Below are positions 1,747 through 45,093 of a stretch of 64,000 nucleotides of DNA, one piece after another. The translations under genes were made by a program, and so were the position numbers. Every line of letters starts with the position of its first letter. Position 1 is the first letter of the stretch. The stretch is from Octopus sinensis (taxonomy: Eukaryota), in assembly GCF_006345805.1 (NCBI RefSeq), contig NC_042998.1, positions 136,834,001 to 136,898,000 of the forward strand. The letters run 5' to 3'. A model generated the notes under the pieces. It was not told the DNA's origin. It saw only the letters and a program-made list of their open reading frames with translations, and made no database searches.

Positions 1747-1793
<47 letters not shown>

Positions 1794-2000
1794 TTGTAGT
1801 AGATAAATGAATTATCTTATTACGGATAATTCACATGATAACCGATACCTGGGTAGCAAATATCACAACAGAAAAAACACGGTTGAAGTTACGACCATGG
1901 GGCATAAAAACCGTGCCTTAGTGCGGAAATTTGAAGTTTTATATATTAAGTGTAGGAAGAAATGGAGCTGAACGAAGATTTAACAAAATTCCTTTATATT

Positions 2001-2086
2001 ATTTTCTACATATGTTTCGAAGGCTGCAAAGTCCCTAATTCGGATTGAATAAGGAGTCCATTTTGCAGCTTTCTCTTCAGGAAAAT
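2001..2086 (-). ncRNA. type I hammerhead ribozyme
   Basis: Minus strand: AUUUUC-CUGAAGA-[GAAAGCUGCAAA...UUUGCAGCCUUC]-GAAA-CAUAUG-UA-GAAAAU. Stem I, core, long stem II, palindromic stem III and GUA cleavage triplet are all present. Confidence 0.85.
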
Positions 2087-2812
2087 CCAGGAACTTAATT
2101 CTCCAACAAAATGCACAACAAGCTTTTCGACAAACGCTCATGAGGAGCCCATGAAATAAATGACACAAACTGTCTATCTATATGCGTTGACGCCAGACTG
2201 GGTGAAATCAGAAGAGATTGTCCGTTGAGATAGTTCAAGGTCAGAATCCGGTTGGCAGAAGGGGGTACAGGAAAATCAAAGAGTGTGAATGTATTCTGTA
2301 TGACTGGTGTTTATATTTGAATTATTTTAAGAATGAGTGTTAGAGTGTTTGAGTGTGAGAAAATGCTTTAATGTATGTGTGTGTGCGTCTATGTATGTGT
2401 GACAGTGTGTTTCGAAGGCAGAAAGAGAGAGAGATATAGCAGGTATTAATGGTCAAGAAATACCTGCTATATCTCTCTCTCTTTCTGCCTTCGAAACACA
2501 CTGTCACACATACATAGACGCACACACACATACATTAAAGCATTTTCTCACGCTCAAACACTCTAACACTCATTCTTAAAATAATTCAAATATAAACACC
2601 AGTCATACAGAATACATTCACACTCTTTGATTTTCCTGTACCCCCCTTCTGCCAACCGGATTCTGACCTTGAACTATCTCAACGGACAATCTCTTCTGAT
2701 TTCACCCAGTCTGAAATATAGATAGACAGTTTGTGTCATTTATTTCATGGGTTCCTCGTGAGCGTTTGTCGAAAAGCTTGTTGTGCATTTTGTTGGAGAA
2801 TTAAGTTCCTGG

Positions 2813-2898
2813 ATTTTCCTGAAGAGAAAGCTGCAAAATGGACTCCTTATTCAATCCGAATTAGGGACTTTGCAGCCTTCGAAGCATATGTAGAAAAT
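2813..2898 (+). ncRNA. type I hammerhead ribozyme, core variant (GAAG instead of GAAA)
   Basis: Inverted copy of 2001-2086 reading ...ccttc GAAG catatg ta gaaaat; probably impaired. Confidence 0.7.
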
Positions 2899-3269
2899 AA
2901 TATAAAGGAATTTTATTAAATCTTCGTTCAGCTCCATTTCTTCCTACACTATATATATATGACTGTACTGGAGTATGGTGTGCGTTGTTAATAACAGGTG
3001 CCTTCAGTTTATTTTAAATTCTTAGATAAACCTATTTTAAATACCAATGAATCAATTTGGTCCCTAATACGTTTTAGAAAGACAAAATTTTCAAAATAAC
3101 TGCGATTTCATATAATAGTACCTTCCTATCCTTCATTCACTTTCGAGAGTGATCTTTTGTGTCACACTCGAAACTATAGAATGGAATCGAAGATTATGTA
3201 ATTTATGTTCTAATACAATAGAACCTACCTACCTACCTACCTACCTGTCATCATTTGTATCAGGTTTCA

Positions 3270-3939: not shown

Positions 3940-3996
<57 letters not shown>

Positions 3997-4069
3997 AACA
4001 AAAGACGAAGACAGATGTAGGAACAACAAGCAGGTGTATTTGTTTAACGCTTGGGAAGAATGGAAAAGT

Positions 4070-4105
4070 CTTTTACGTTTCGAGCCTATATTCTTCGACA
4101 GAAAG
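4070..4105 (-). ncRNA. degenerate minimal hammerhead-like motif in the Penelope pLTR
   Basis: Minus strand: CUUU-CUGUCGAAGA-AUAUAGGCUC-GAAA-CG-UA-AAAG; non-canonical core. Confidence 0.45.
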
Positions 4106-6349
4106 GATTAAGAGGGGGAAAAGGATGAAAAAAAAAGCGGAGAGATAAAGAAAAATGTTTGTAGGGATTAACGGCTCAACATGACGTTACAGCCAGAAGA
4201 AGACTGAATGAAAGAGAGATAATTACGGTCGAACGAATTCTATTCTCACGCATGTGTGTATGTCAGAAAAGTGTGTGTGAGTGTGTGAATATGTATGTGT
4301 AGGCGAGCAGAAACATAGTAGACCTGAGTGTGTGTGTATATATGTATGTGACACAGTTCGTACATTATGTGAAGTGATGTGCGTTCTGTGTATTTGTGTG
4401 TGTGTATGGACATATGTATACGTGTGAGTGTGAATATGGACATGTGTGTGTGTGAAAACGCATGTGTTTAGTAGTTGATATGTACTTATTCAGGTTGTGT
4501 ATGCACGTGTGTTTGCATGTGTGACCATATAGTGTACATGTGTATAGTGTATGCTTGTGGGCGAAAGTATCTGCCTATGCGTGTTGTATTTGTTAATGCG
4601 TGTTGTGTGTGTTTATGCGTGTCGCGTGTGAGTGTGTACATATTGTCTGTGTTCAGGCATTATATGCTTGTGTGTGTGTGAGATTGTACATGATGATGTG
4701 TGGTATGTATACTGAGTTGAACAGTGTGTAGGGATGCTCGTATAGTGGTTTGTGTGGTGACGCTATTGAAGCGTGTGTGTGTGGGTGTGTGGAAGTGTGG
4801 AAAATGGTGTGTAATGTGTATGCTGAGAAGTGTTGGGTGCTTATGTGTGTGGAGTGAAAAGGTGTTTGTGGGTGTGGGTGTAATGGTGTATGACGCGTGT
4901 AATGAGTTGAACAATATGTATGGGTGCTTTTTTAGTGGTATGTGTATGGTGAGGGTACTGAAGTAGGTGATATGCAGGTGTGTAGGTGAGGGGAGGGACA
5001 GGTGCATGTGGGAAGTGTGAGGAATCTATGTGAGGTGTGTCAGATTAAAAGAAGTTTCAAGTTGAGCTCACAAGTCGCAAACGAACGAAAGAAGATTAAT
5101 TACAGTTCACCACGAAGGCGAGGGTCCAGGTGGCTCCTGTGCAGAGATAGTCTGAACACAAATAGATGTTGTAAAGCGGAAATGACGTGAGACCAGGGTG
5201 TCATTGCTGTGTCTGATTTCTCGGAGGTGCTCCGCGAACCGGCCAGCCAAGCGGCATCCCGATTGACCAATGTACAGGGAAGGACAGACAGAGTAGGAGA
5301 TGCAGTAAATAACGTTACTGGAGGTGCAAGTAAAGGAATCGGTGATGTGATTGGGACAGTGGTGAGTGCCAGTGAGGATAGTGGTGATGGAGAGGTATGG
5401 CAGGTGCGACTGCGTGAGCGAGAACAGAGAAAGGAGCCAGGCTGGGAGGCGGGAGTAGGGAAGAAACCGTGGACCAGGTGGCTACGTAGGTTATGGGCTC
5501 GTTTGAAAGAGGGAAGAGGTGGGTTAGGGAAGATGTGCGAGGTGGAGCGTCAGACTGGAGTTACCGGAAAGCTCGGAGAACTGTGCGTTGGAGGGAAAGG
5601 GTGGAGGGGCAGTAGATGAGGAGAAACGGGAAACGGGTAAGGGTGAGACGGGTTCGAGGAAAAAGAGCAGAGGCATGGTCCACAGATCATGGCCGTTCAA
5701 GGGCAGCGTGGATAATGGTGAGGAGATATCCAAGTAAGGTGAAGTGACGAGCCATGAGTTGAGACTGGGTCTCAAAGTCATGGTCGTCACTGCAGAAACT
5801 GCGTAGACGGAGGAATTGGAAGTAGGGGATGGAGGGCTTAGTGTGGATAGGGTGGGAGGATGAGAAATTAAGGTAGGAGTGTGAGGCTATGTGTTTGTAG
5901 TGAATGAAAGTGTTGACAGCGGAGTGGTGTATGTTGAGAAATTCGACGGAAGAGTTAGAGACAGTGCAGGAGAATTCGAGGGCAGGATGAAAGGATTAGA
6001 CAAAGGAGAGGGAGGAATCAAAATGTTTGCGGGAGAGTGAGGTTGCACCGATACAGTCATCGATAAAACGACCGTGTAGTTCAGGAGTGGGACTAGTGAA
6101 CTGTGAGATTATTTGGGTTTCAACATAACCAACAAACAGGTTCGCATTATTGGGGTCCATTCTCGTTCCCATGGCCACTCCCGAGAATGTTGGTAAAATT
6201 CCTCCACAATCGAGAAGCAGTTGAGGGAAAGGACAAGTTCGGCCGAACGAAGAAGGGTGGAGGTGTTAGGCTGCGGGTCGGGTCGAAGGTCAAGGAAGTG
6301 TTTTAGCGCAAGAAGGCCTTTGTTGTGCAGGATCACCGTGTACACATAT

Positions 6350-15807: not shown

Positions 15808-16292
15808 AAAGTTTGTTTGGTAAAGCACGTGGGTGAATATATAAGAAAATAGTAAAGAGTGAAAAAACGACAGAAGGCTTAAATGTTAAAAAATATATAT
15901 ATTTGCGTCAAAATGTCTGGAGAATATTGGAAAAAATTTTTTTCCTTTCCTTAAAATGACATAATTTTATAATTTTTAAATTCACACTAAAGGAAAAAAA
16001 AAATTTTTTAAGCGATTATCTCCCTTACACCGGAAGAAATCACTCACTACTTTCCCTTATTTAGAACTCTCCTTAGCAAAAATACAAGGATTACGTTATT
16101 AAAAATAAACATTAAGTCACAAGAAATTTGAAGAGCTAACTGCGAAACCGGTATTTCTTTAAAAATTATAAAATTATGTCATTTTAAGGAAAGGAAAAAA
16201 ATTTTTTCCAATATTCTCCAGACATTTTGACGCAAATATATATATTTTTTAACATTTAAGCCTTCTGTCGTTTTTTCACTCTTTACTATTTT

Positions 16293-16300
<8 letters not shown>
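15806..16300. mobile_element. foldback element in (TA)n with a degenerate hammerhead (probable family 6)
   Basis: Inverted arms ~15835-15980 and 16158-16300, TA tracts both sides, AAGAAAU-UUGAAGA-GCUAACUGC-GAAA-CCGG-UA-UUUCUU at 16121-16159 (+). Confidence 0.7.
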
Positions 16301-16324
<24 letters not shown>

Positions 16325-18640: not shown

Positions 18641-19162
18641 GATGTATAGTATACATGTACATGTATATATATGTATATATATATTGATGTATATGTAATA
18701 TGTACACGTATATATACATATAAATCTATATACATACATATACATATATAGATGCAACAGTGGGCTTGTGATAAGAAACTTGCTTCCCAACCACATGGTT
18801 CCAGGTTCCAGCTTTCGATTAGTGAAACCTTCAGAGATAGTTGTTTCCAACTCTCTTTTCATTTGAAACACTCTTGATTCCCTCTTTCTTTATATAAAAT
18901 CTTGAGCCACTACCAAAATGTATTCATTATATATAGATTCACACTCAACTACATAAAACATGTCTTATAAAATTGCTGGACATTTAAAACAATTTATGTT
19001 CAGTAATGTTTCAGACAGTAACTTTAGACATTACCATACATATAAATTCTACTTTTCTTTAAAAGCAAACACTTGTAAGAAAATCTGAATCATTATACTT
19101 CAATATGGAAAAAGTGTCTTCTATTATACATACATATATACATATATACATATATATATATA

Positions 19163-20901
19163 TATATTGTATAGAGGGCATTATTACACATAAATGCCTC
19201 ACACTAGGAGGGACAAAGTCATTACTACCAAAATTATAGTAATCATACCCAAATGCAGTTTTTCAAAGCAAGACATTTAAAAAATGAATTTAGTTCTGTA
19301 TCACCGTGATTTCACATTCAACTTACGTCTAATGATCGTCAGCAGAACTGATTCTGAACACATCATAAATAAACTACCAACCTTACGTAGCGAAGACGAA
19401 CAGACAACTGCTCACTCCGGCCAAGCACATGCAATGTTTATAAATCATATATCCGGTAAATGGCGGGCTTTTTACGAACTGCATGTCGGGTAATGAAAAG
19501 TATTTCGGAATAAGTTTAACAATTAAGGATAATCTCTTAATAAGGGATCTTAACAAGAAATTATCGGGTAGCTAGCGTGAAAACCTCATAAAAGAAAAGA
19601 ATTCGAAAATAATTTTTTTCTTTTGAACAAATTAATTATATCTATATTGTATAGAGGGCATTATTACACATAAATGCCTCACACTAGGAGGGACAAAGTC
19701 ATTACTACCAAAATTATACTAATCATACCCAAATGCAGTTTTTCAAAGCAAGACATTTAAAAAATGAATTTAGTTCTGTATCACCGTGATTTCACATTCA
19801 ACTTACGTCTAATGATCGTCAGCAGAACTGATTCTGAACACATCATAAATAAACTACCAACCTTACGTAGCGAAGACGAACAGACAACTGCTCACTCCGG
19901 CCAAGCACATGGAATGTTTATAAATCATATATCCGGTAAATGGCGGGCTTTTTACGAACTGCATGTCGGGTAATGAAAAGTATTTCGGAATAAGTTTAAC
20001 AATAAGGATAATCTCTTAATAAGGGATCTTAACAAGAAATTATCGGGTAGCTAGCGTGAAAACCTCATAAAAGAAAAGAATTCGAAAATAATTTTTTTCT
20101 TTTGAACAAATTAATTATATCTATATTTATAGAGGGCATTATTACACATAAATGCCTCACACTAGGAGGGACAAAGTCATTACTACCAAAATTATACTAA
20201 TCATACCCAAATGCAGTTTTTCAAAGCAAGACATTTAAAAAATGAATTTAGTTCTGTATCACCGTGATTTCACATTCAACTTACGTCTAATGATCGTCAG
20301 CAGAACTGATTCTGAACACATCATAAATAAACTACCAACCTTACGTAGCGAAGACGAACAGACAACTGCTCACTCCGGCCAAGCACATGGAATGTTTATA
20401 AATCATATATCCGGTAAATGGCGGGCTTTTTACGAACTGCATGTCGGGTAATGAAAAGTATTTCGGAATAAGTTTAACAATTAAGGATAATCTCTTAATA
20501 AGGGATCTTAACAAGAAATTATCGGGTAGCTAGCGTGAAAACCTCATAAAAGAAAAGAATTCGAAAATAATTTTTTTCTTTTGAACAAATTAATTATATC
20601 TATATTGTATAGAGGGCATTATTACACATAAATGCCTCACACTAGGAGGGACAAAGTCATTACTACCAAAATTATACTAATCATACCCAAATGCAGTTTT
20701 TCAAAGCAAGACATTTAAAAATGAATTTAGTTCTCTATCACCGTGATTTCACATTCAACTTACGTCTAATATAGATATAATTAATTTGTTCAAAAGAAAA
20801 AAATTATTTTCGAATTCATTTCTTTTATGAGGTTTTCACGCTAGCTACCCGATAATTTCTTGTTAAGATCCCTTATTAAGAGATTATCCTTAATTGTCAA
20901 A

Positions 20902-20906
<5 letters not shown>
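19163..20906. mobile_element. hammerhead-bearing tandem array family 2 (~480-bp unit x3.35 plus inverted ~140-bp tail) in (TA)n
   Basis: Units start at 19163, 19643, 20122 and 20601 (partial to 20770); inverted segment 20768-20906; (TA)n on both flanks. Confidence 0.92.
19292..19349 (-). ncRNA. type I hammerhead ribozyme (copies also at 19772-19829 and 20250-20307)
   Basis: AGUUCUG-CUGACGA-U[CAUUAGAC GUAA GUUGAAUG]U-GAAA-UCACGGUGA-UA-CAGAACU; perfect 7-bp stem I and near-palindromic stem III. Confidence 0.85.
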
Positions 20907-20947
<41 letters not shown>

Positions 20948-20962
20948 ATATATATTATATAT

Positions 20963-20996
<34 letters not shown>

Positions 20997-21177
20997 TAAG
21001 CAATAAGGGTTTAGCAACGAGTTGCCTTACCACATACCGAATTTAGAAATAGCAGTCAAAGGGTTATAGCTATTTCTTCTACTAAAAAGGGAGATCTCAG
21101 TAAAAACAGCATTTGGAAGGCACAAACAGGTAAGAGAGAATGAATTGACTGCAATCTATCATACATTTTTTTAGTTA

Positions 21178-21291
21178 TCCACGGACGTACGTTTCGAAAT
21201 CAAGTTTTAAGGAAAGCATACGAATTAAATATTAAATATTAAATAATAAATAATTCTATCTTACCGAAACTTCTTTTCTCTTCAGCGTAGA
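21178..21291 (-). ncRNA. type I hammerhead ribozyme with 83-nt stem-loop II (copies at 21779-21891, 22378-22490, 22976-23088)
   Basis: UCUACG-CUGAAGA-[GAAA...UUUC]-GAAA-CGUACG-UC-CGUGGA; GUC triplet and palindromic stem III. Confidence 0.85.
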
Positions 21292-23680
21292 ATACTATAA
21301 TCATAAATGATTATATATTGAATTTTGAGATACCAGAAGGCACCAACTCCACTCAGTATCAGAGCGAGCTAGAACCCGCAACTGGTATCACCGAATTCAA
21401 TTTGTGAATGAAACGATTGTGTCAACACCCCTTCCCACCCGCGTGTAGCCAAAACAAGATGCTGTGGTCATCTACTGAGATAAAATATGGTTATCCGTAA
21501 TAATGAAGGGTGAAATTAATTAATTTGGAAAAATTATCAATTACACCAAGTAGTCTTCGGCATGTAAAAGCCTCATTCGAGGAAAATTTAAGTAATACTA
21601 AGCAATAAGGGTTTAGCAACGAGTTGCCTACCACATACCGAATTTAGAAATAGCAGTCAAAGGGTTATAGCTATTTCTTCTACTAAAAAGGGAGATCTCA
21701 GTAAAAACAGCATTTGGAAGGCACAAACAGGTAAGAGAGAATGAATTGACTGCAATCTATCATACATTTTTTTAGTTATCCACGGACGTACGTTTCGAAA
21801 TCAAGTTTTAAGAAAGCATACGAATTAAATATTAAATATTAAATAATAAATAATTCTATCTTACCGAAACTTCTTTTCTCTTCAGCGTAGAATACTATAA
21901 TCATAAATGATTATATATTGATTTTGAGATACCAGAAGGCACCAACTCCACTCAGTATCAGAGCGAGCTAGAACCCGCAACTGGTATCACCGAATTCAAT
22001 TTGTGAATGAAACGATTGTGTCAACAGCCCCTTCCCACCCGCGTGTAGCCAAAACAGATGCTGTGGTCATCTACTGAGATAAAATATGGTTATCCGTAAT
22101 AATGAAGGGTGAAATTAATTAATTTGGAAAAATTATCAATTACACCAAGTAGTCTTCGGCATGTAAAAGCCTCATTCGAGGAAAATTTAAGTAATACTAA
22201 GCAATAAGGGTTTAGCAACGAGTTGCCTTACCACATACCGATTTAGAAATAGCAGTCAAAGGGTTATAGCTATTTCTTCTACTAAAAAGGGAGATCTCAG
22301 TAAAAACAGCATTTGGAAGGCACAAACAGGTAAGAGAGAATGAATTGACTGCAATCTATCATACATTTTTTTAGTTATCCACGGACGTACGTTTCGAAAT
22401 CAAGTTTTAAGGAAAGCATACGAATTAAATATTAAATATAAATAATAAATAATTCTATCTTACCGAAACTTCTTTTCTCTTCAGCGTAGAATACTATAAT
22501 CATAAATGATTATATATTGAATTTTGAGATACCAGAAGGCACCAACTCCACTCAGTATCAGAGCGAGCTAGAACCCGCAACTGGTATCACCGAATTCATT
22601 TGTGAATGAAACGATTGTGTCAACAGCCCCTTCCCACCCGCGTGTAGCCAAAACAAGATGCTGTGGTCATCTACTGAGATAAAATATGGTTATCCGTAAT
22701 AATGAAGGGTGAAATTAATTAATTTGGAAAAATTATCAATTACACCAAGTAGTCTTCGGCATGTAAAAGCCTCATTCGAGGAAAATTTAAGTAATACTAA
22801 GCAATAAGGTTTAGCAACGAGTTGCCTTACCACATACCGAATTTAGAAATAGCAGTCAAAGGTTATAGCTATTTCTTCTATTAAAAGGGAGATCTCAGTA
22901 AAAACAGCATTTGGAAGGCACAAACAGGTAAGAGAGAATGAATTGACTGCAATCTATCATACATTTTTTTAGTTATCCACGGACGTACGTTTCGAAATCA
23001 GTTTTAAGGAAAGCATACGAATTAAATATTAAATATTAAATAATAAATAATTCTATCTTACCGAAACTTCTTTTCTCTTCAGCGTAGAATACTATAATCA
23101 TAAATGATTATATATTGAATTTTGAGATACCAGAAGGCACCAACTCCACTCAGTATCAGAGCGAGCTAGAACCCGCAACTGGTGTCACCGAATTCAATTT
23201 GTGAATGAAACGATTGTGTCAACAGCCCCTTCCCACCCGCTGTTTGTGCCTTCCAAATGCTGTTTTTACTGAGATCTCCCTTTTTAGTAGAAGAAATAGC
23301 TATAACCCTTTGACTGCTATTTCTAAATTCGGTATGTGGTAAGGCAACTCGTTGCTAAACCCTTATTGCTTAGTATTACTTAAATTTTCCTCGAATGAGG
23401 CTTTTACATGCCGAAGACTACTTGGTGTAATTGATAATTTTTCCAAATTAATTAATTTCACCCTTCATTATTACGGATAACCATATTTTATCTCAGTAGA
23501 TGACCACAGCATCTTGTTTTGGCTACACGCGGGTGGGAAGGGGCTGTTGACACAATCGTTTCATTCACAAATTGAATTCGGTGATACCAGTTGCGGGTTC
23601 TAGCTCGCTCTGATACTGAGTGGAGTTGGTGCCTTCTGGTATCTCAAAATTCAATATATAATCATTTATGATTATAGTAT

Positions 23681-23794
23681 TCTACGCTGAAGAGAAAAGA
23701 AGTTTCGGTAAGATAGAATTATTTATTATTTAATATTTAATATTTAATTCGTATGCTTTCCTTAAAACTTGATTTCGAAACGTACGTCCGTGGA
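23681..23794 (+). ncRNA. type I hammerhead ribozyme (inverted arm of family 3)
   Basis: tctacg ctgaaga gaaaagaagttt...aaacttgatttc gaaa cgtacg tc cgtgga read directly on the + strand. Confidence 0.85.
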
Positions 23795-23984
23795 TAACTA
23801 AAAAAATGTATGATAGATTGCAGTCAATTCATTCTCTCTTACCTGTTTGTGCCTTCCAAATGCTGTTTTTACTGAGATCTCCCTTTTTAGTAGAAGAAAT
23901 AGCTATAACCCTTTGACTGCTATTTCTAAATTCGGTATGTGGTAAGGCAACTCGTTGCTAAACCCTTATTGCTTAGTATTACTT

Positions 23985-24030
<46 letters not shown>

Positions 24031-25946
24031 CTCTAGTTTCAGGTCAGAGCTGCGGCCATGCTGATGCACCGCCGTTTTGTGCTACACTGTTATTACGAAG
24101 AACCTTGTCTAATATGTGGCACTTGGTGAAGAATGGAGTTTGATATAGCTACTCTCATTTGCACCTCTTGCCGTGAAGTAGGTTCATCTGGGACTCTCGA
24201 CAGGAAGATGTCCAGCTTTGATTTAAAAACCGCTACATCTACTTTGTGCAAGTTCCTCAGAGTCATTGGGAAAATATTAAAAAGCTGTGGGTCTTTGAAA
24301 CCCAGGCTGTTGCAGAAGCTGGTCCTGAAGCGTGATGGCATTGCTGGGATCTTCGGCACTATGCAGTGTCGTCCCGTTCTAGCATTGGTGTAGCTTACAA
24401 TGTCAAATTTGGCACAATTCCTTCCAGGATCTTCCAGACATATATTACTGCATACCTCTCCCGTCTTCTCTCCAGGGAGTCGAGTCTTAGCTATTTCAAC
24501 CTTTCCCAGTAGCTGAGCTGTTGCAAAGAGACGATCTTCTTTGTGAATCTTCTCTGGATTGCTTCAAAGTCCGCTGTTAATTTTACACTGGTGGGTGACC
24601 ATAGCTATGAGCAGTAATCCAAGCGGCTGAGGACGAATGTCCGCCAGAGGACCATCATGGTTTCCTTATCTCTGGTTCTGAATGTTCTTAGGATCCACCC
24701 AGTCAGTCGTCTGCACTTTGTCGCCATCCTGGTAATGCGCACTTGGAATGAGGTATCATCACTCATGTCGATACCCAGGTCCCTCACAGACTTAGGCTCT
24801 GGGATTGAAATTCCCTGTGGACCGGTGTATCCTGTAAGTTTAATATTCAGTTTTGGATGCTGGTAGCGCAGGGCCTGGAATTTTTCAGCATTAAACTGCA
24901 TATTATTATCCTCCGCCCATCTGTAGATTGAGTCCAACTCCTGCTGCAAGTGTGCAACATCGCTGGGGTTCTGTATTTTCTGCGAGACTTTCGTATCGTC
25001 TGCATAGCTGGCCAGAGTGGCTATCCGGGCAATTGAGGGTATATCTGAGAAGGCCACTATAAAAAGCAGTGGTCCCAAGACAGTGCCCTGTGGAACACCG
25101 CTCACTATTTGTGTGTTCATAGAGGTGGCTCCATTAACCACTACTGCCTGACTCCTATCTTTCAGGAAGTCATGTAGCCACACTCCAAATTTTCCAGCTA
25201 TGCCGAGGTCACGCAGTTTGTGGCATATCATACCATGATCCACCTTGTCAAAAGCTTTTGCAAAATCAAAGTAGATTACGTCCACATTTGATTTGTTGAG
25301 TAACCTCCTCAACACCATGTCATGATGTTGTAAGAGCTGGGTCAGGCAGCTCCTACCTTGTCGAAAACTATGCTGGGTATCACTCAGCAAGTTATTTTCC
25401 TCAAGGAATGCGATTAGTTTCTTTCTGACTATCCGTTCCATGACTTTGCTGATGTGTGAAGTCAGAGAGATAGGCCTATAGTTTTTGGCATCTGCTCTAC
25501 TTCCCCCTTTATGTATTGGGCATATTATTCCCAGCTTGCTTGGTAGTTTGCCATTCGCAAGAAAGCTCTGGAAGAGAATCTTGAGGGGTTTTGCCAGGGC
25601 ATGCTTACACGCTTTGAGGAGGATGGCTGGGAAACCATCTGGACCAACAGCTGAGTTTGTGTCTACTTCATCAATGGCTAGTAGGACATCTTTTTCGCTA
25701 ATGTCAATACATTCTATTGTAACCTCCTCGCTGGTTATAGGTGAGGCGGCAAAGAAGTCCACTGGTTCGTTCACTTATTTGTGTTCCAACGGGGTGGTAA
25801 AGACACTTTTGAACTGGTCATTCAGCATCTCACTGATCTTAGTTGGACTGTCTGTGAGGAAGCCATCCTTTTGAAGGAGGGGTCCTATCTTGTAGTGCAC
25901 TGCGACTGTTTCTTTCGCGTAATGAAAGAAGGCCTTTGGGTTTGAT
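24031..25946 (-). mobile_element. 5'-truncated CR1/L2-group LINE
   Basis: RT ORF 24605-25774; disrupted continuation in ORF 24093-24359 (FKSKLDIFLSRVPDEP); 3' tail at ~24031-24075. Confidence 0.85.
24605..25774 (-). pseudogene. non-LTR reverse transcriptase fragment (389 aa)
   Basis: NYRPISLTS, QHSFRQGRSC, DFAKAFDKV, GVPQGTVLGP, YADD; flanked by stops, start codon not genuine. Confidence 0.9.
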
Positions 25947-34330: not shown

Positions 34331-34401
<71 letters not shown>

Positions 34402-34606
34402 AAGAAGGGTAGTAATATTATTTACTACCAGGTGCCCAGCACAAAAGACGAATTAGTCATAAGACAAAAATATTATTCATATAGAAAAATATTATTCATG
34501 TAGTTATACAATTAAGGGCTCCTAAATTAAGATGCCGAGTGCTGGGAACACAAAAAGGGGATGAATTTATCGAGAGTGAAAATCAAAAACGTTTACCGAT
34601 AACTTT

Positions 34607-34688
34607 AACAACTCGAACCGCGGTTTCTGCTTCTTTCTAGCAAAACACAGAATATGTTTGCTAAGGCTAGCTTCGTCAGCGAGTCGCC
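34607..34688 (-). ncRNA. type I hammerhead ribozyme
   Basis: GGCGACUCG-CUGACGA-[AGCU..UAGCAAACAUA UUC UGUGUUUUGCUA..AGCA]-GAAA-CCGCGG-UU-CGAGUUGUU. Confidence 0.8.
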
Positions 34689-35338
34689 TAAATTGAATCG
34701 AGGTCTGCAGCGATGTGGGACCATGTGTTGATCTCGACTACTAGCAGATCTTAACTTTTCAAATCTCTGCGCAGACGCAAAACTTACACGGCAGTATAGG
34801 GCATGCCGGGAAGAATTTTACGAATAAATCCATCATGTAATATGCGAATATAAACAAGAAGGGTAGTAATATTATTTACTACCAGGTGCCCAGCACAAAA
34901 GACGAATTAGTCATAAGACAAAAATATTATTCATATAGAAAAATATTATTCATGTAGTTATACAATTAAGGGCTCCTAAAACGTTTTTGATTTTCACTCT
35001 CGATAAATTCATCCCCTTTTTGTGTTCCCAGCACTCGGCATCTTAATTTAGGAGCCCTTAATTGTATAACTACATGAATAATATTTTTCTATATGAATAA
35101 TATTTTTGTCTTATGACTAATTCGTCTTTTGTGCTGGGCACCTGGTAGTAAATAATATTACTACCCTTCTTGTTTATATTCGCATATTACATGATGGATT
35201 TATTCGTAAAATTCTTCCCGGCATGCCCTATACTGCCGTGTAAGTTTTGCGTCTGCGCAGAGATTTGAAAAGTTAAGATCTGCTAGTAGTCGAGATCAAC
35301 ACATGGTCCCACATCGCTGCAGACCTCGATTCAATTTA

Positions 35339-35420
35339 GGCGACTCGCTGACGAAGCTAGCCTTAGCAAACATATTCTGTGTTTTGCTAGAAAGAAGCAG
35401 AAACCGCGGTTCGAGTTGTT
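35339..35420 (+). ncRNA. type I hammerhead ribozyme (inverted arm of family 4)
   Basis: Reverse complement of 34607-34688. Confidence 0.8.
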
Positions 35421-35514
35421 AAAGTTATCGGTAAACGTTTTTGATTTTCACTCTCGATAAATTCATCCCCTTTTTGTGTTCCCAGCACTCGGCATCTTAA
35501 TTTAGGAGCCCTTA

Positions 35515-35583
<69 letters not shown>

Positions 35584-35593
35584 TTATAGAAGG

Positions 35594-35644
35594 AGCTTCT
35601 ACAGGACTAGAACTGTTTCATTCAGATGAAATCATCAGGAAGCT
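35594..35644 (-). ncRNA. type I hammerhead ribozyme
   Basis: AGCUUC-CUGAUGA-UUUCAUCUGAAU-GAAA-CAG uucuaguc CUG-UA-GAAGCU. Confidence 0.85.
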
Positions 35645-35681
35645 GGCTGTCAAAAAAAACTTGTTTTTTTTTTTGACAGCC

Positions 35682-35732
35682 AGCTTCCTGAAGATTTCAT
35701 CTGAATGAAACAGTTCTAGTCCTGTAGAAGCT
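35682..35732 (+). ncRNA. type I hammerhead ribozyme
   Basis: agcttc ctgaaga tttcatctgaat gaaa cag ttctagtc ctg ta gaagct. Confidence 0.85.
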
Positions 35733-35814
35733 CCTTCTATAAAATAAATTACTTTACTCTGCTATTTATTGAGTACCTTATTTACTGTGGTTAATCCCGA
35801 CTCAACCCGGGACC

Positions 35815-38800: not shown

Positions 38801-40215
38801 GAAACAGATTTCAATACAGAACTGCAAGCAAACATAAATGAAGTTTTGCCAACATTGCATCCTGAGCAACTGGTTGTTTTCCACGAAGTCGTCACCTCAG
38901 TAAATGAAAATTAAGGTAAATTTTTTGTTTGAATGCAAGTGCAGGTACAGGAAAATCTTACATCGTCAACATCATACTGGATTACATTCGATCTCAAAAA
39001 CATATTGCACTTGCAACCGTCATATCTCGAATAGCAGCCACTTCACAGAGGTAGAACTCATAATTCCAAATGCAAGATTCCTATCAATGTAATTGCTGTA
39101 TCAACTTGCACCTTCACAAAGAAGGATGCCACAGGTGAACTAATGCAGCAAGCTGACTTGCAAATTATTGATGAGATAAGTATGGGGCATAAACATATCT
39201 TCGAATACCTTGACAGGAGCTTGCAAGATGTTCGAGATTGCAAAGAGACATTTGGTGGTCTAACAGTATTACTATCTGGTGACTGGAAGCAAATTCTTCC
39301 CGCTGTGCGTCATGGTGCTAGACCACAAATAGTTGAGGCAATTATCAAGACATCTTATCTATGGTACTACGTGGAAACCCTGGAGATGACAACCAACCAA
39401 TGTTTAAATAATGCACGGGAATAGGATGAAAGAGTTCTCAAACTACCTTCTTGATATTGGAAACGGTAACACTCTGACACTACCAACTTTAGGTGCGTTC
39501 ACAATTCCTCTGCCAAATGAACTTTGTCTGGAATATGGTGATATCTGAACTGAGCTTTTTTGTATATACAAATCTTCAAGGAAACTACTCAAACCCACTA
39601 TGGCTTGCAAATAGAACTGTTATCACTCGAACAAATGGTGAATTAATTCATGTCCAACAAGTCCCCTTGTCATGAAAGAGTCTATAATACCTCTGACACA
39701 GTAGATAATGAACTGCAATATCTACTCGAGTTCATCAACAAACTTACACCATCAGGCTTCCCAACACACATTCTTAAACTGAAGAAAGGCATTTGCATCA
39801 TGCTTCTGGGAAATCTGGACCCTTTAAACGGTCATTCCAATGGTACGCGCTATATCATCATCAACTTACATAATCATGTGATTGAAGCTGAAGTAGCTTT
39901 GGGGCCCAATGCTGGAACCGGCTGCTTATCCCACGGTTACCTCAAATATCTCAAAGAGCTTGATTTCTCTTTCGCCTTTATGCGCGAGCAATTTCCTGCC
40001 AAACCTGCCTTTGCCCTTACATGCAACAAAGCACCAGGTCAGACACTTGAAAAGATAAGTGTATATCTACCAACACAATTCTTCGCACATGGTCAGATGT
40101 ATTTTGCATTATCAAGAGCGTAAAGAAAAGAAAATATAAAAATATTAACCCGGATAAATGAAAAGGGTCCATTTGCTGGCGATTGTATCTACAAAGAAAT
40201 TCTACAGTGATGTGA
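35900..40215 (+). mobile_element. decayed autonomous Helitron (Rep-helicase pseudogene)
   Basis: Rep motifs YFITVITNPKW (~37251), VEWQKRGLVHAHIL (~37415), VKYL*KYTRKG (~37852). Helicase motifs IIDEISM, GDWKQILP, NGTR, TCNKAPGQTL, HGQMYFALSR. Many stops and frameshifts. Confidence 0.9.
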
Positions 40216-40509
40216 AACATTCATTACTCTCTTTTAATTGAAATATATTTAAGTTTATTCTTAATTTCTAGGAAAGGGACACTAGAGACACTTAAGGAGT
40301 CTATAAGTGAATATAATAAAACAACATTATAGCAAAACTCAACTCTTCATACTGGTAAATGTAATTCATTAATTTCAACCAGAGCATCTATTTTCAAATT
40401 CACTGAAGTGAATATTCATTATCGTTTTTTTAAAAATGTGTCGTGGATTATTTTACTGATTACAGAATAAACTATTACAGAGTCTTTGTTCAATTCATGT
40501 GCATATTGT

Positions 40510-42455
40510 CAATTTATCTCTCTCTATATAAAATTGAGAACTGTTAGAAGATGGTGCACAATGGGATGCAACTTTAGGAGAGGCTGCTTTATCACAATCA
40601 CCTAAAAGTCTCAGGGCACTATTTGCAGTATTACTACAGGCATGCGAACTGTGTGATCCGGCCACTCTATGGCTCAAATAAAGAGACAACCTGGCTGAAG
40701 ACTTTCAGCGCCAAGCTCAACTGCTCTATCCTGGCATGGAGGGTATCAGCAATGAAATCTATAACTAAACACTCATTGACATTGAAGACAGAATTGCTAA
40801 ACTGGGTGGAAATGAATTGTCGACGTATGGCCTGCCACAAGCATTCAGCTCAGGGTCAAATAGCCTTCCCATTGCTGTCATTCGTGAAACAGCCTACGAC
40901 ACTCAAGCGCTTTCAAAGTACATTGTTGAAAATGAACCTAAATTACTTCCGGACCAGCTGCAGGCCTACAGAACTATTCTTAACAGTATACGCCAACGCG
41001 AGGGACGAATCTTCCCCCTCGATGCTCCTGGAGGGACAGGAAAAACATTTATTACAAAGCTTCTCCTTGCAGAAGTTACGCAGTATCAGGACATTGCAGT
41101 AGCTGTAGCCTACTCTGGCATTGCAGCTACTTTGTTACCCGGTGGCAGGACAGGACACTCAACTTTTAAACTCCCTCTCAATTTAGCAGCATCCGAAATG
41201 CCTTCATGCAACATCAACAAAAGCTCAGATCAAGGACAAGTACTTAAAATGTGTCATCTAATTGTCTGGGATGAGTGCACTATGGCTCACAAGGGAGATT
41301 TGGAAGCATTAGATAGAGCCCTGAAAGACATCCGAGACTGTCAGGCTCCAATGGGAGGTGTAACGCTTCTGTTGTCAGGTGATTTCAGGCAAACTCTTCC
41401 TGTCATTCCGAAAGGCACTAGAACAGATGAAGTCCAAGCATACCTAAAGTCCTCTAGCCTGTGGCATCATGTTACAATCCTCAGTCTCACCACTAACATG
41501 AGAGCTCAGCTACACGGCGACAAAATGTCCACAAAGTTTGCACAGGACATTTTGACACTTGCTGAAGGCAAGATGCCTCTCGATGTTGCAGGACAAATGG
41601 AAGTGTGGTCATTTTCCTCTGTTGTTAATTCTGTAGATGACCTCAAAAACAAAGTCTTTCCCAACTTCACACAAAACTACCAAAATCACAATTGGCTGTG
41701 TGAAAGAGCAATATTAGCTCCAAAAAACGTCGATGTTAACAAAATTAATCAACAGCTAATGCATTCTCTTCCCGGCACTATACACACTTACAAGTCTGTT
41801 GATACAATTCCTGATATAAATGAAGTTGTGAACTATCCTCCTGAATTTTTCAATTCACTGGAGTCTCCTGGACTACCTCCACACATATTAGCACTTAAAG
41901 TTGGAACTCCTGTAATGCTACTCCGCAATCTGGAACCACCAAGACTTTGCAATGGAACACGACTGGTGAAAAAGAAAATGATGTCACACGTTATCGAGGC
42001 GATCATTCTTTCTGGATGTGGAAAAGGTGATGACGTCTTTATTCCAAGATTTCCCCTTACTCCATCAGGAGCAGAAATTCCATTTACATTCAGAAGACTG
42101 CAATTCCCCCTTCGTGTCAGCTTTGCCATGTCCATTAATAAATCTCAGGGTCAAACCCTCTCTGTAGCTGGTCTTCTCTTGGAAGAGCCCTGCTTCTCGC
42201 ATGGGCAACTGTATGTTGGCTGCTCAAGAGTAGGAAAAACAAGAAACATTGTTTACAACGAGGTGTTATAATCTCAACAGCCAGGAGGTATATACATGAT
42301 CCCCTTTTTTTAACAAACATCATGTACTTTCATGTTTTTATATTAATATACATATATATATGTGTGTGTGTGTGTGTGTGTATCCATATATATATAACAG
42401 AAAAGTCTAATTCTTCAATTGAATGTAACCGGGCAACGCCGTGTATCTCTGCTAG
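40510..42455 (+). mobile_element. second Helitron, 3' part with terminus
   Basis: Begins at LLEDGAQWDATLGEAAL; ends with imperfect hairpin ccgggcaacgccgtg and CTAG|T at 42452-42456. Confidence 0.85.
40817..42271 (+). CDS. Helitron Pif1-family (SF1B) helicase domain, open 484 codons, 5'-truncated
   Basis: Walker A DAPGGTGKT, IVWDECTM, GDFRQTLPV, LCNGTRL, FAMSINKSQGQTL, HGQLYVGCSRV; non-ATG start with upstream frame disrupted. Confidence 0.8.
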   Translation: MSTYGLPQAFSSGSNSLPIAVIRETAYDTQALSKYIVENEPKLLPDQLQAYRTILNSIRQREGRIFPLDAPGGTGKTFITKLLLAEVTQYQDIAVAVAYSGIAATLLPGGRTGHSTFKLPLNLAASEMPSCNINKSSDQGQVLKMCHLIVWDECTMAHKGDLEALDRALKDIRDCQAPMGGVTLLLSGDFRQTLPVIPKGTRTDEVQAYLKSSSLWHHVTILSLTTNMRAQLHGDKMSTKFAQDILTLAEGKMPLDVAGQMEVWSFSSVVNSVDDLKNKVFPNFTQNYQNHNWLCERAILAPKNVDVNKINQQLMHSLPGTIHTYKSVDTIPDINEVVNYPPEFFNSLESPGLPPHILALKVGTPVMLLRNLEPPRLCNGTRLVKKKMMSHVIEAIILSGCGKGDDVFIPRFPLTPSGAEIPFTFRRLQFPLRVSFAMSINKSQGQTLSVAGLLLEEPCFSHGQLYVGCSRVGKTRNIVYNEVL

Positions 42456-44388: not shown

Positions 44389-44718
44389 AAATCAATGGAT
44401 ATATTAAAGGATTTAATTATTTGCTTCGCCTCATTTTGTCGTTAATTTAAGTCCAACAAAGTTAAAAATAATACTAATGTACTGGGTCAGTCCATTCAAC
44501 TATCACTCCTTAGCCCTAGCTGATTTGAACTTGTCTGATTTGTTTATTAGTTATGCAAAATATTCTAATGAAATTAAACCTACAGGAAATACAGTTGTGC
44601 TGAATGGTTACATTTTTTATTCTCATTTTCAAGAAACAAGTTCGATATTTTCAGATTATTCTTTATTTATTGTCTGCCAACAATACATTGTATAAAACAT
44701 TATTTAAATGGTCAACTT

Positions 44719-45093
44719 ATGCATCTTAAAGGTACGCTGGAAAAACCGTTTGAATGTATCATTTGCGGGATGGAATTTTGGCGGCAATATCATCTGGAAC
44801 GTCATCGTTTAAACCACTATGGAAAGAAACCATTTAAATGTGACTGGTGCGGTCACCATTTTTCCCGGAAGGACCACTTATTAAGACATACCAGGAGTCA
44901 CACAGGTGTTCGACCTTACCAGTGCAATATTTGTATGGCTTTGTTTACCCGGAGTGACCATATGGGAAGACACCGATTAATCCACATAAAGAGCAAATAT
45001 TCTTGTTTTATATGTAAGAAAACATTTTTGAAAAAAGAGCGTTTAATTAAGCATATGTTGAAGCATGTAAAAGCTCATCATTTGACATTTTGA
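44719..45093 (+). CDS. C2H2 (Kruppel-like) zinc-finger protein, 4 fingers; single or terminal exon
   Basis: Four CxxC-x12-HxxxH fingers with HYGKKPF and HTGVRPY linkers; AATAAA at 45188-45193; start codon uncertain. Confidence 0.85.
   Translation: MHLKGTLEKPFECIICGMEFWRQYHLERHRLNHYGKKPFKCDWCGHHFSRKDHLLRHTRSHTGVRPYQCNICMALFTRSDHMGRHRLIHIKSKYSCFICKKTFLKKERLIKHMLKHVKAHHLTF

Follow-up and report, generated by a model that had tools for sequence, protein, structure and literature searches.

The window, by which we mean the whole 64,000-nt stretch of Octopus sinensis DNA that was analysed, carries three unrelated tandem hammerhead families, called here F2, F3 and F4, with units of 480, 603 and 454 nt, respectively. 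Their insertions are built in one order: (TA)n, main arm, inversion point, inverted arm, and (TA)n again. As the second arm is inverted, both outer ends of such an insertion are RNA-sense 3' ends. The features are listed in Table 1, in which positions within a unit are counted around a circle whose position 1 is the first base after the predicted cut.

The F3 array is a head-to-head insertion in (TA)n whose main-arm outer end aligns at 20993-20994, about 190 nt past the predicted cut. The corresponding end of F2 is ambiguous (19157-19163) because the unit is itself TA-like at that place, and that of F4 lies at 34394-34398, about 215 nt past its cut. At the inversion point the arms overlap by 1 nt in F3 and by 3 nt in F2. 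One (TA)n tract (20904-20995) is common to F2 and F3, so that two families have inserted side by side in the same microsatellite. A broken non-LTR retrotransposon RT at 24093-25774 (Pfam RVT_1, E 5e-31) adjoins the right flank of F3.

Table 1. Hammerhead arrays, their targets and the control elements in the window
Feature	Position	Strand	Remarks
F1 control, head-to-head 3' ends, likely Penelope-like element	1790..2950	.	Predicted cut after 2007 (minus)
Broken 5'-truncated PLE control	3990..6340	-	RT remnant, GIY-YIG (Pfam E 0.002), degenerate minimal hammerhead
F2 main arm	19157..20770	-	3.37 units; 3' end at position ~136-142 (site B)
F2 predicted cuts	19299/19298, 19779/19778, 20257/20256	-	
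F2 inverted arm	20768..20906	+	Positions 131-269, ends at site A
F3 left-flank (TA)n target, also F2 right flank	20904..20995	.	
F3 main arm	20993..23240	-	3.75 units; RNA-sense 3' end at position 191 (site A), 5' end at position 344
F3 type I hammerhead, long stem II	21178..21291	-	Predicted cut 21184/21183
F3 main arm, repeated hammerhead copies		-	Predicted cuts after 21785, 22384, 22982
F3 inverted arm	23240..23989	+	1.24 units; 5' end at position 55, 3' end at position 201
F3 inverted-arm hammerhead		+	Predicted cut after 23788
F3 right-flank (TA)n target	23989..24027	.	
F4 main arm	34394..34980	-	1.29 units; 3' end at ~218-222 (site A); predicted cut 34616/34615
F4 inverted arm	34979..35522	+	1.20 units; 3' end at position 111 (site B)

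Assignment of the arrays and their Penelope-like neighbours

Units of F2, F3 and F4 contain a CUGANGA / GAAA / UH core in type I order, with stems I, II and III. A descriptor scan detected the F3 hammerhead and missed those of F2 and F4, in which the base of stem II is mismatched; these two were first read by eye, after which their core and stems I and III were confirmed. There were no Rfam matches at gathering score for the hammerhead families of the window, and MFE folds contained stem I and lacked the full hammerhead core (z -0.25 to -1.1). Substitutions fixed in every unit (lap) of an insertion were absent from 11 core positions (0 vs 2.2 expected, p 0.11), fell four times on the free N7/H17, and left the stem I pairs intact. 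Self-cleavage at the predicted sites would fit this sparing of the core, as indirect evidence.

The GC content of the arrays (0.28-0.36) is below the 45% limit for non-LTR retrozymes. We found no ORF of at least 120 aa in 19157-23989 or 34394-35522 and no LTRs, the arms passing straight into (TA)n, and the arrays enclose neither the RT nor the GIY-YIG ORF by which an autonomous EN+ Penelope-like element (PLE) is recognized. The footprint is nevertheless of the PLE type, with a 5'-truncated arm placed head-to-head, an extension at one end only, and a (TA)n target. A first look at the genome gave 624 candidates for F3, 881 for F2 and 1016 for F4. All sequence features tested place the array among the non-LTR retrozymes, and an autonomous PLE is excluded. 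Both this class of element and the circle model for it have already been published, and the present families are further members.

Two other elements of the window served as controls. At its end, the ORF upstream of F1 has a GIY-YIG-like stretch whose CxxC and CxH motifs resemble the description of Hydra-clade PLEs (PMC8557442), and F1 is likely a Hydra-like Penelope element. Its ORF matched no Pfam family, and an Atlas lead clusters it with GIY-YIG on 11% of members. The F1 hammerhead has a long stem, and F1 has 2601 candidates in the genome. In the window copy, the distances from the predicted cut to the arm ends are 217 and about 60-67 nt; an inverted arm was present in 8 of 30 loci obtained with a genome query selected for the long end, and in all 8 one arm extends 207-217 nt and the other 67 nt beyond the hammerhead. 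The end of the broken PLE at 3990-6340 lies at (TA)n, about 80 nt beyond its degenerate hammerhead. It has relatives in the genome with frames of up to 822 codons, the 822-codon frame giving weak RT and GIY-YIG matches, and GIY-YIG candidates number 10,424 genome-wide. A search by sequence similarity for a partner PLE of F2-F4 gave no match to F1 or, once nested retrozyme copies were set aside, to any of 20 long-ORF PLE loci.

Fixed starting sites, one for each arm

Genomic copies were sampled from the best 40 of 624 candidates for F3 (38 loci, skewed to full-length young copies), the best 40 of 881 for F2 and the best 40 of 1016 for F4 (39 loci each). A second F3 sample took the first 40 unfetched of 514 exact site-A junctions and is length-unbiased but selected for site A. 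The insertions of the window were added. Left out of the counts were L039 and L040, which have the same flanks as L031, L047 and initially L166, which are cut by the edge of the fetch or contig, and, for variants, L142, which has a duplicated segment.

The outer 3' ends of the sampled copies are fixed. They fall in 184-203 or 284-303 in 58 of 59 cases for F3, in 260-272 or 130-146 in 66 of 67 for F2, and in 215-232, 105-140 or 60-66 in 56 of 58 for F4. Taken together, 180/184 lie inside two or three narrow intervals per family, drawn after viewing the data and making up 6.6, 6.2 and 13.4% of the unit (F3, F2, F4), and none of the 184 lies within 10 nt of the predicted cut. Exact F3 junctions with (TA)n number 514 at site A (191) and 307 at site B (294) genome-wide, against 0 for controls. 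Unlike the 3' ends, the 5' ends of the arms are scattered.

An earlier note on this DNA had proposed a circular or multimeric template because array ends miss the cut sites and copy numbers are not integers. Its offsets of ~190, ~135 and ~215 nt past the cut (F3, F2, F4) are present in the sequence, and its copy numbers of 3.75, 3.35 and 1.3 agree with our 3.75, 3.37 and 1.29; it had omitted the inverted arms, whose 3' ends lie at the opposite (TA)n flank. The argument that it drew from these values fails. The ends that it took to be permuted are fixed, which rules out random permutation, and the fractional copy numbers follow from a start that is fixed at the 3' end and a stop that varies at the 5' end. 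Penelope elements ordinarily end beyond the ribozyme, in a "tail" (PMC11167929), and both F1 and the PLE at 3990-6340 do so; offset ends alone therefore cannot separate a circle from an uncleaved linear transcript. Fixed ends had been named there, together with a linear polyadenylated transcript, as evidence against a circle; fixed they are, yet every junction inspected enters (TA)n, and a poly(A)-primed linear transcript is ruled out by internal sites that abut (TA)n. The conclusion itself survives when set against a cut-to-cut monomer copied once.

Each unit contains 41-59 TA dinucleotides, so overlap with TA cannot by itself select sites A and B. The word YCCTY stands a few bases upstream of every recurrent start (9 of its 16 occurrences in four families), although this motif was derived post hoc and F1 is without it. 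A fifth hammerhead family, with a 559-nt unit and tandem and inverted arms, was met at L201 (4633-6507) and L202 (5197-5387). Its ends at +193 and +293 (L201) are homologous to the F3 sites, and its homology with F3 is confined to F3 positions 129-287; since the two families are alike there only and their ends correspond, the region between A and B appears to be a cis element.

Of 77 simple two-armed insertions, 76 have their arms at different sites (F3 38/39, F2 25/25, F4 13/13). The pair is A+B in 20/21 of the unselected F3 sample and 18/18 of the site-A-selected one (19/19 with L166 completed), in 24/25 F2 insertions, where the remaining pair is A+other, and in 10/13 F4 insertions, where three are A+other. 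No B+B pair occurs among the simple two-armed insertions of F2, F3 and F4. Compared with free choice of sites, p is 1e-5 for F3, 6e-8 for F2 and 1e-3 for F4 in the unselected sets. The single exception is the F3 array of the window itself, an A+A pair (191 + 201). Twelve complex insertions were kept out of this table, and their visible outer-end pairs differed as well. Insertions with one arm are mostly at site A (11/12 unselected F3, 10/12 F2, 21/21 F4).

The 77 inversion joins comprise 45 with an overlap of 1-13 nt, 13 that are blunt, and 19 with filler. Matching of the phase at which the two arms stop, even where their lap numbers differ, was tried as a signature of a circle and rejected (permutation p 0.27 for F3, 0.46 for F2, 0.44 for F4). 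Only F3 arm pairs of the same lap stop near each other (p 0.013), which could come from a shared hairpin stop. In L147-L186, short F3 arms frequently stop at 92-113, at the 5' foot of a predicted hairpin (107-140), and the two arms then often end no more than 15 nt apart.

Laps within single insertions

Laps of one insertion resemble one another more than they resemble those of other insertions. Differences within and between insertions were 0.42/2.31, 0.50/9.67, 1.22/2.72 and 1.23/9.5 in four sample sets, and laps are near-identical even in subfamilies 5-7% away from the consensus. We counted 105 distinct substitutions fixed in all laps, 51 of them seen in one sampled insertion only. The earlier note had suggested checking for private variants common to the units of one array, and they are there: 40 of 65 insertions with at least three laps hold an all-lap substitution, often in both arms. 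It had also held that the gradual divergence of unequal crossing-over would speak against its reading. That satellite pattern, with blocks common to neighbouring units, was not found in these arrays; variants are mostly all-lap or single-lap, span the inversion and occur in both arms, and a minority are pairs of neighbouring laps.

Four private variants were searched for genome-wide, and no donor array was found for any of them in the assembly. Those of L056, L095 and L067 occur at their own locus only, two of them in both arms. The variant of L055 has one outside match, in one lap of another haplotype, and the array concerned (C7:116124271) was rejected as its donor on account of that haplotype. 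Donors may be missing from the assembly, which is noisy (many single-lap indels) and represents one haplotype set. The F3 array of the window has no private fixed variants, so the conclusion for it rests on its family. An ADAR origin of the private variants was rejected in the absence of strand bias (A>G 10, T>C 16).

Some arrays are not uniform. A split site, with at least two laps on either side, occurs in 21/65 long insertions and counts against a single circular template. Copying from mosaic donors would predict split sites common to several insertions, and none is common even to two. L090 and L117 appear mosaic. In L067 two variants occupy laps 0, 2 and 4 and lap 0 of the other arm, and in L124 three variants alternate in complementary laps, possibly because the templates were dimeric circles. 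Pooled over the genome, the period-2 pattern was not significant (8/37 partial variants against a permutation mean of 5.6, p 0.16), and these two loci therefore remain anecdotes.

The predicted cut is crossed without an indel within 3 nt in 447 of 459 cases, an indel rate of 2.6% against a background of 2.8-6.2%. The longest arm has 11.1 units, and one insertion has 10.5 + 8.9. Site-A arms of the length-unbiased F3 sample are much shorter, with a median of 165 nt; 18/40 cross the cut and 7/40 do so twice, which makes long donors scarce. Arms end within the 25 nt before the cut, in the direction of the RT, in 24 of 220 cases, and within the 25 nt after it in 3 (p 5e-5). Some of these stops follow 1-4 full laps and a few are at position 1-2. 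F3 and F4 show the excess distinctly; in F2 it belongs to a wider stretch of stops. Linear templates, cleavage of a circle while it was being copied, or pausing at stem I would each account for it, and probably some templates were cut or linear, or stem I makes the RT pause.

One locus is present on three contigs (L031, L039, L040) with 3.41, 2.41 and 2.35 units. The flanks and the two 3' ends are the same, and the inversion junction of L040 differs. The options are an allele, a duplicated segment, alternative repair of one event, or an assembly error, and lap numbers may accordingly vary through assembly error or later change in the DNA.

Templates, rival routes and related systems

We think it probable that the arrays were written by a Penelope-type RT/GIY-YIG enzyme from a single circular RNA, with both target strands as primers and several laps of reading. 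A read-through transcript would cleave itself into monomers, and these would be ligated into circles. A dimeric PLE protein would bind the A-B region and nick both (TA)n strands, whereupon one cDNA would begin at each of sites A and B, aided by 1-4 nt of TA-like pairing. Each RT would travel 3'-to-5' across the junction repeatedly and halt at a variable point, and the two cDNA ends would then be joined head-to-head, or a lone cDNA would be joined to the other target end. We advance more tentatively, as a little less than an even chance, the fuller reading that an RT dimer works on one circle from two YCCUY-marked starts for at most ~19 laps in total, each insertion being the fossil record of a single RNA. 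If so, all-lap variants would be the changes of one RNA molecule, the alternating L067 and L124 would be copies of dimeric circles, and the one-sided tail and head-to-head repeat of PLEs would reflect twin target priming, not antisense self-priming. Two tests specific to a circle, stop-phase matching and period-2 alternation, came out non-significant.

An RT might instead jump precisely and repeatedly from the 5' end to the 3' end of one linear self-cleaved monomer, with no covalent circle. Such precise repeated jumping is known for other RTs, stem I pairs both ends of the monomer, and lap-fixed private variants are explained equally well, as is the excess of stops just before the cut. What makes this route improbable is that indels are not in excess at the clean junctions, that haplotypes do not switch there although several coexist, and that in other animals the circular form predominates (PMC7229834). 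It also seems unlikely that an uncleaved linear multimer was transcribed from a longer uniform donor array and primed internally, as in the route described in vitro for PAc (Poseidon of Anolis). Uncleaved RNA is the dominant PLE substrate in vitro (PMC11167929), which counts against the circle, and a multimer would account for the clean junctions, for arms that stop, several laps on, at a cleaved 5' end, and for the mosaic arrays L090 and L117. It requires, however, an equally long donor with the same variant, and none was found for four variants; nor could it make a new mutation all-lap or lengthen and regenerate long arrays. The lack of shared split sites and the scarcity of long donors also weigh against it.

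We give little credence to a short insertion, of just over one unit per arm, that was later expanded in the DNA by unequal exchange or slippage. The locus with differing unit counts on three contigs and the variants common to neighbouring laps are what this route would leave, and a 2026 preprint prefers local unequal-crossover amplification for the growth of arrays (Li, Clavereau, Pollet 2026, 10.64898/2026.07.22.740005). Against it, variants are common to both inverted arms, laps are near-identical in divergent subfamilies, no block structure is shared, and the strict alternation of L067 extends into the second arm; the insertion must in any case have crossed the cut at least once.

Copying of tandem cDNA from a circle, as we favour it here, is the model of Cervera and de la Pena 2020, made as a proposal (PMC7229834), and the link between retrozymes and PLEs is made in the 2026 preprint. 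As in the metazoan non-LTR retrozymes described there, short low-GC tandem units with a type I hammerhead and no ORF are dispersed through a genome in which PLEs co-occur. Related animal retrozymes are circular in vivo (PMC7229834), and circles and cleavage have been shown for published retrozymes (PMC7229834, 10.64898/2026.07.22.740005), whereas here they are argued from sequence; for frog retrozyme dimers, 8/9 are given as without cleavage (10.64898/2026.07.22.740005), which counts against the circle. In the main texts of the literature consulted, mostly open-access, we found neither these families nor the two-arm rule, and in published retrozyme accounts no end mapping, two-site priming, head-to-head arms or lap-variant test; we thus found no earlier paper for the rule of one site per arm or for the lap-variant test.

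As in EN+ PLEs (PMC3846280, PMC8557442), the arms are 5'-truncated, stand head-to-head and are joined by microhomology, the target is (TA)n, only one of the ends has an extension, and a hammerhead lies near the 3' end. The arrays differ in having no RT or endonuclease ORF, an extension of 100-130 nt instead of 30-40, and arms that are multimers of the whole unit. How PLEs form tandem and inverted copies is described as an open question (PMC8557442). Head-to-head repeats are explained by self-priming on an antisense template in PMC3846280, whereas here both arms begin at the target.

In vitro, the PAc protein starts at two sites inside the RNA, extends both DNA strands, and has been modelled as a dimer (PMC11167929). 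The likeness to our families lies in two starts downstream of the hammerhead, the cutting and extension of both strands, and an AT-rich target. For PAc, however, the strands were not seen to differ in start site, and neither homology nor cleavage was needed, whereas here the arms almost always use different sites, junctions overlap in TA-like sequence, and the ribozyme is passed many times.

Young, numerous and non-coding, these families offer countable genomic evidence on PLE copying and on the circle-template step, in the form of a single start site for each arm, a single template molecule for each insertion, and clean junctions. The A-B region of ~160 nt together with the ribozyme is a small, defined RNA with which PLE proteins could be tested in vitro. 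In LINE-1 twin priming, both target strands prime on one RNA and leave an inversion with a short overlap, the first priming being on poly(A) and the second at variable internal sites. In our families, by contrast, neither start varies, both lie inside the RNA, and the two arms may both be multimers.

Several further observations were made. Contigs of four runs that we guess to be RNA cover the F3 unit, and a joint reaching back 600 nt in them suits a tandem or a circle; for a control stretch, contigs were absent in two of the four, and these data carry no weight in our argument. In two runs (X1 and X2), likewise guessed to be RNA and labelled with a different organism, contigs over 21001-21600 of the window carry A>G differences in clusters, at 24 and 20 places respectively, a pattern that double-stranded RNA editing would leave. 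More inverted repeats lie at 15837-16301, 35579-35747 and 58349-58854, the first two adjoining (TA)n, and are possibly other insertions of the PLE type. PIF1-like helicase fragments at 39035-42271 (Pfam E 1e-58) are presumably the remnant of a Helitron. An ORF at 44578-45093, read by eye, contains several repeats that resemble C2H2 zinc fingers.
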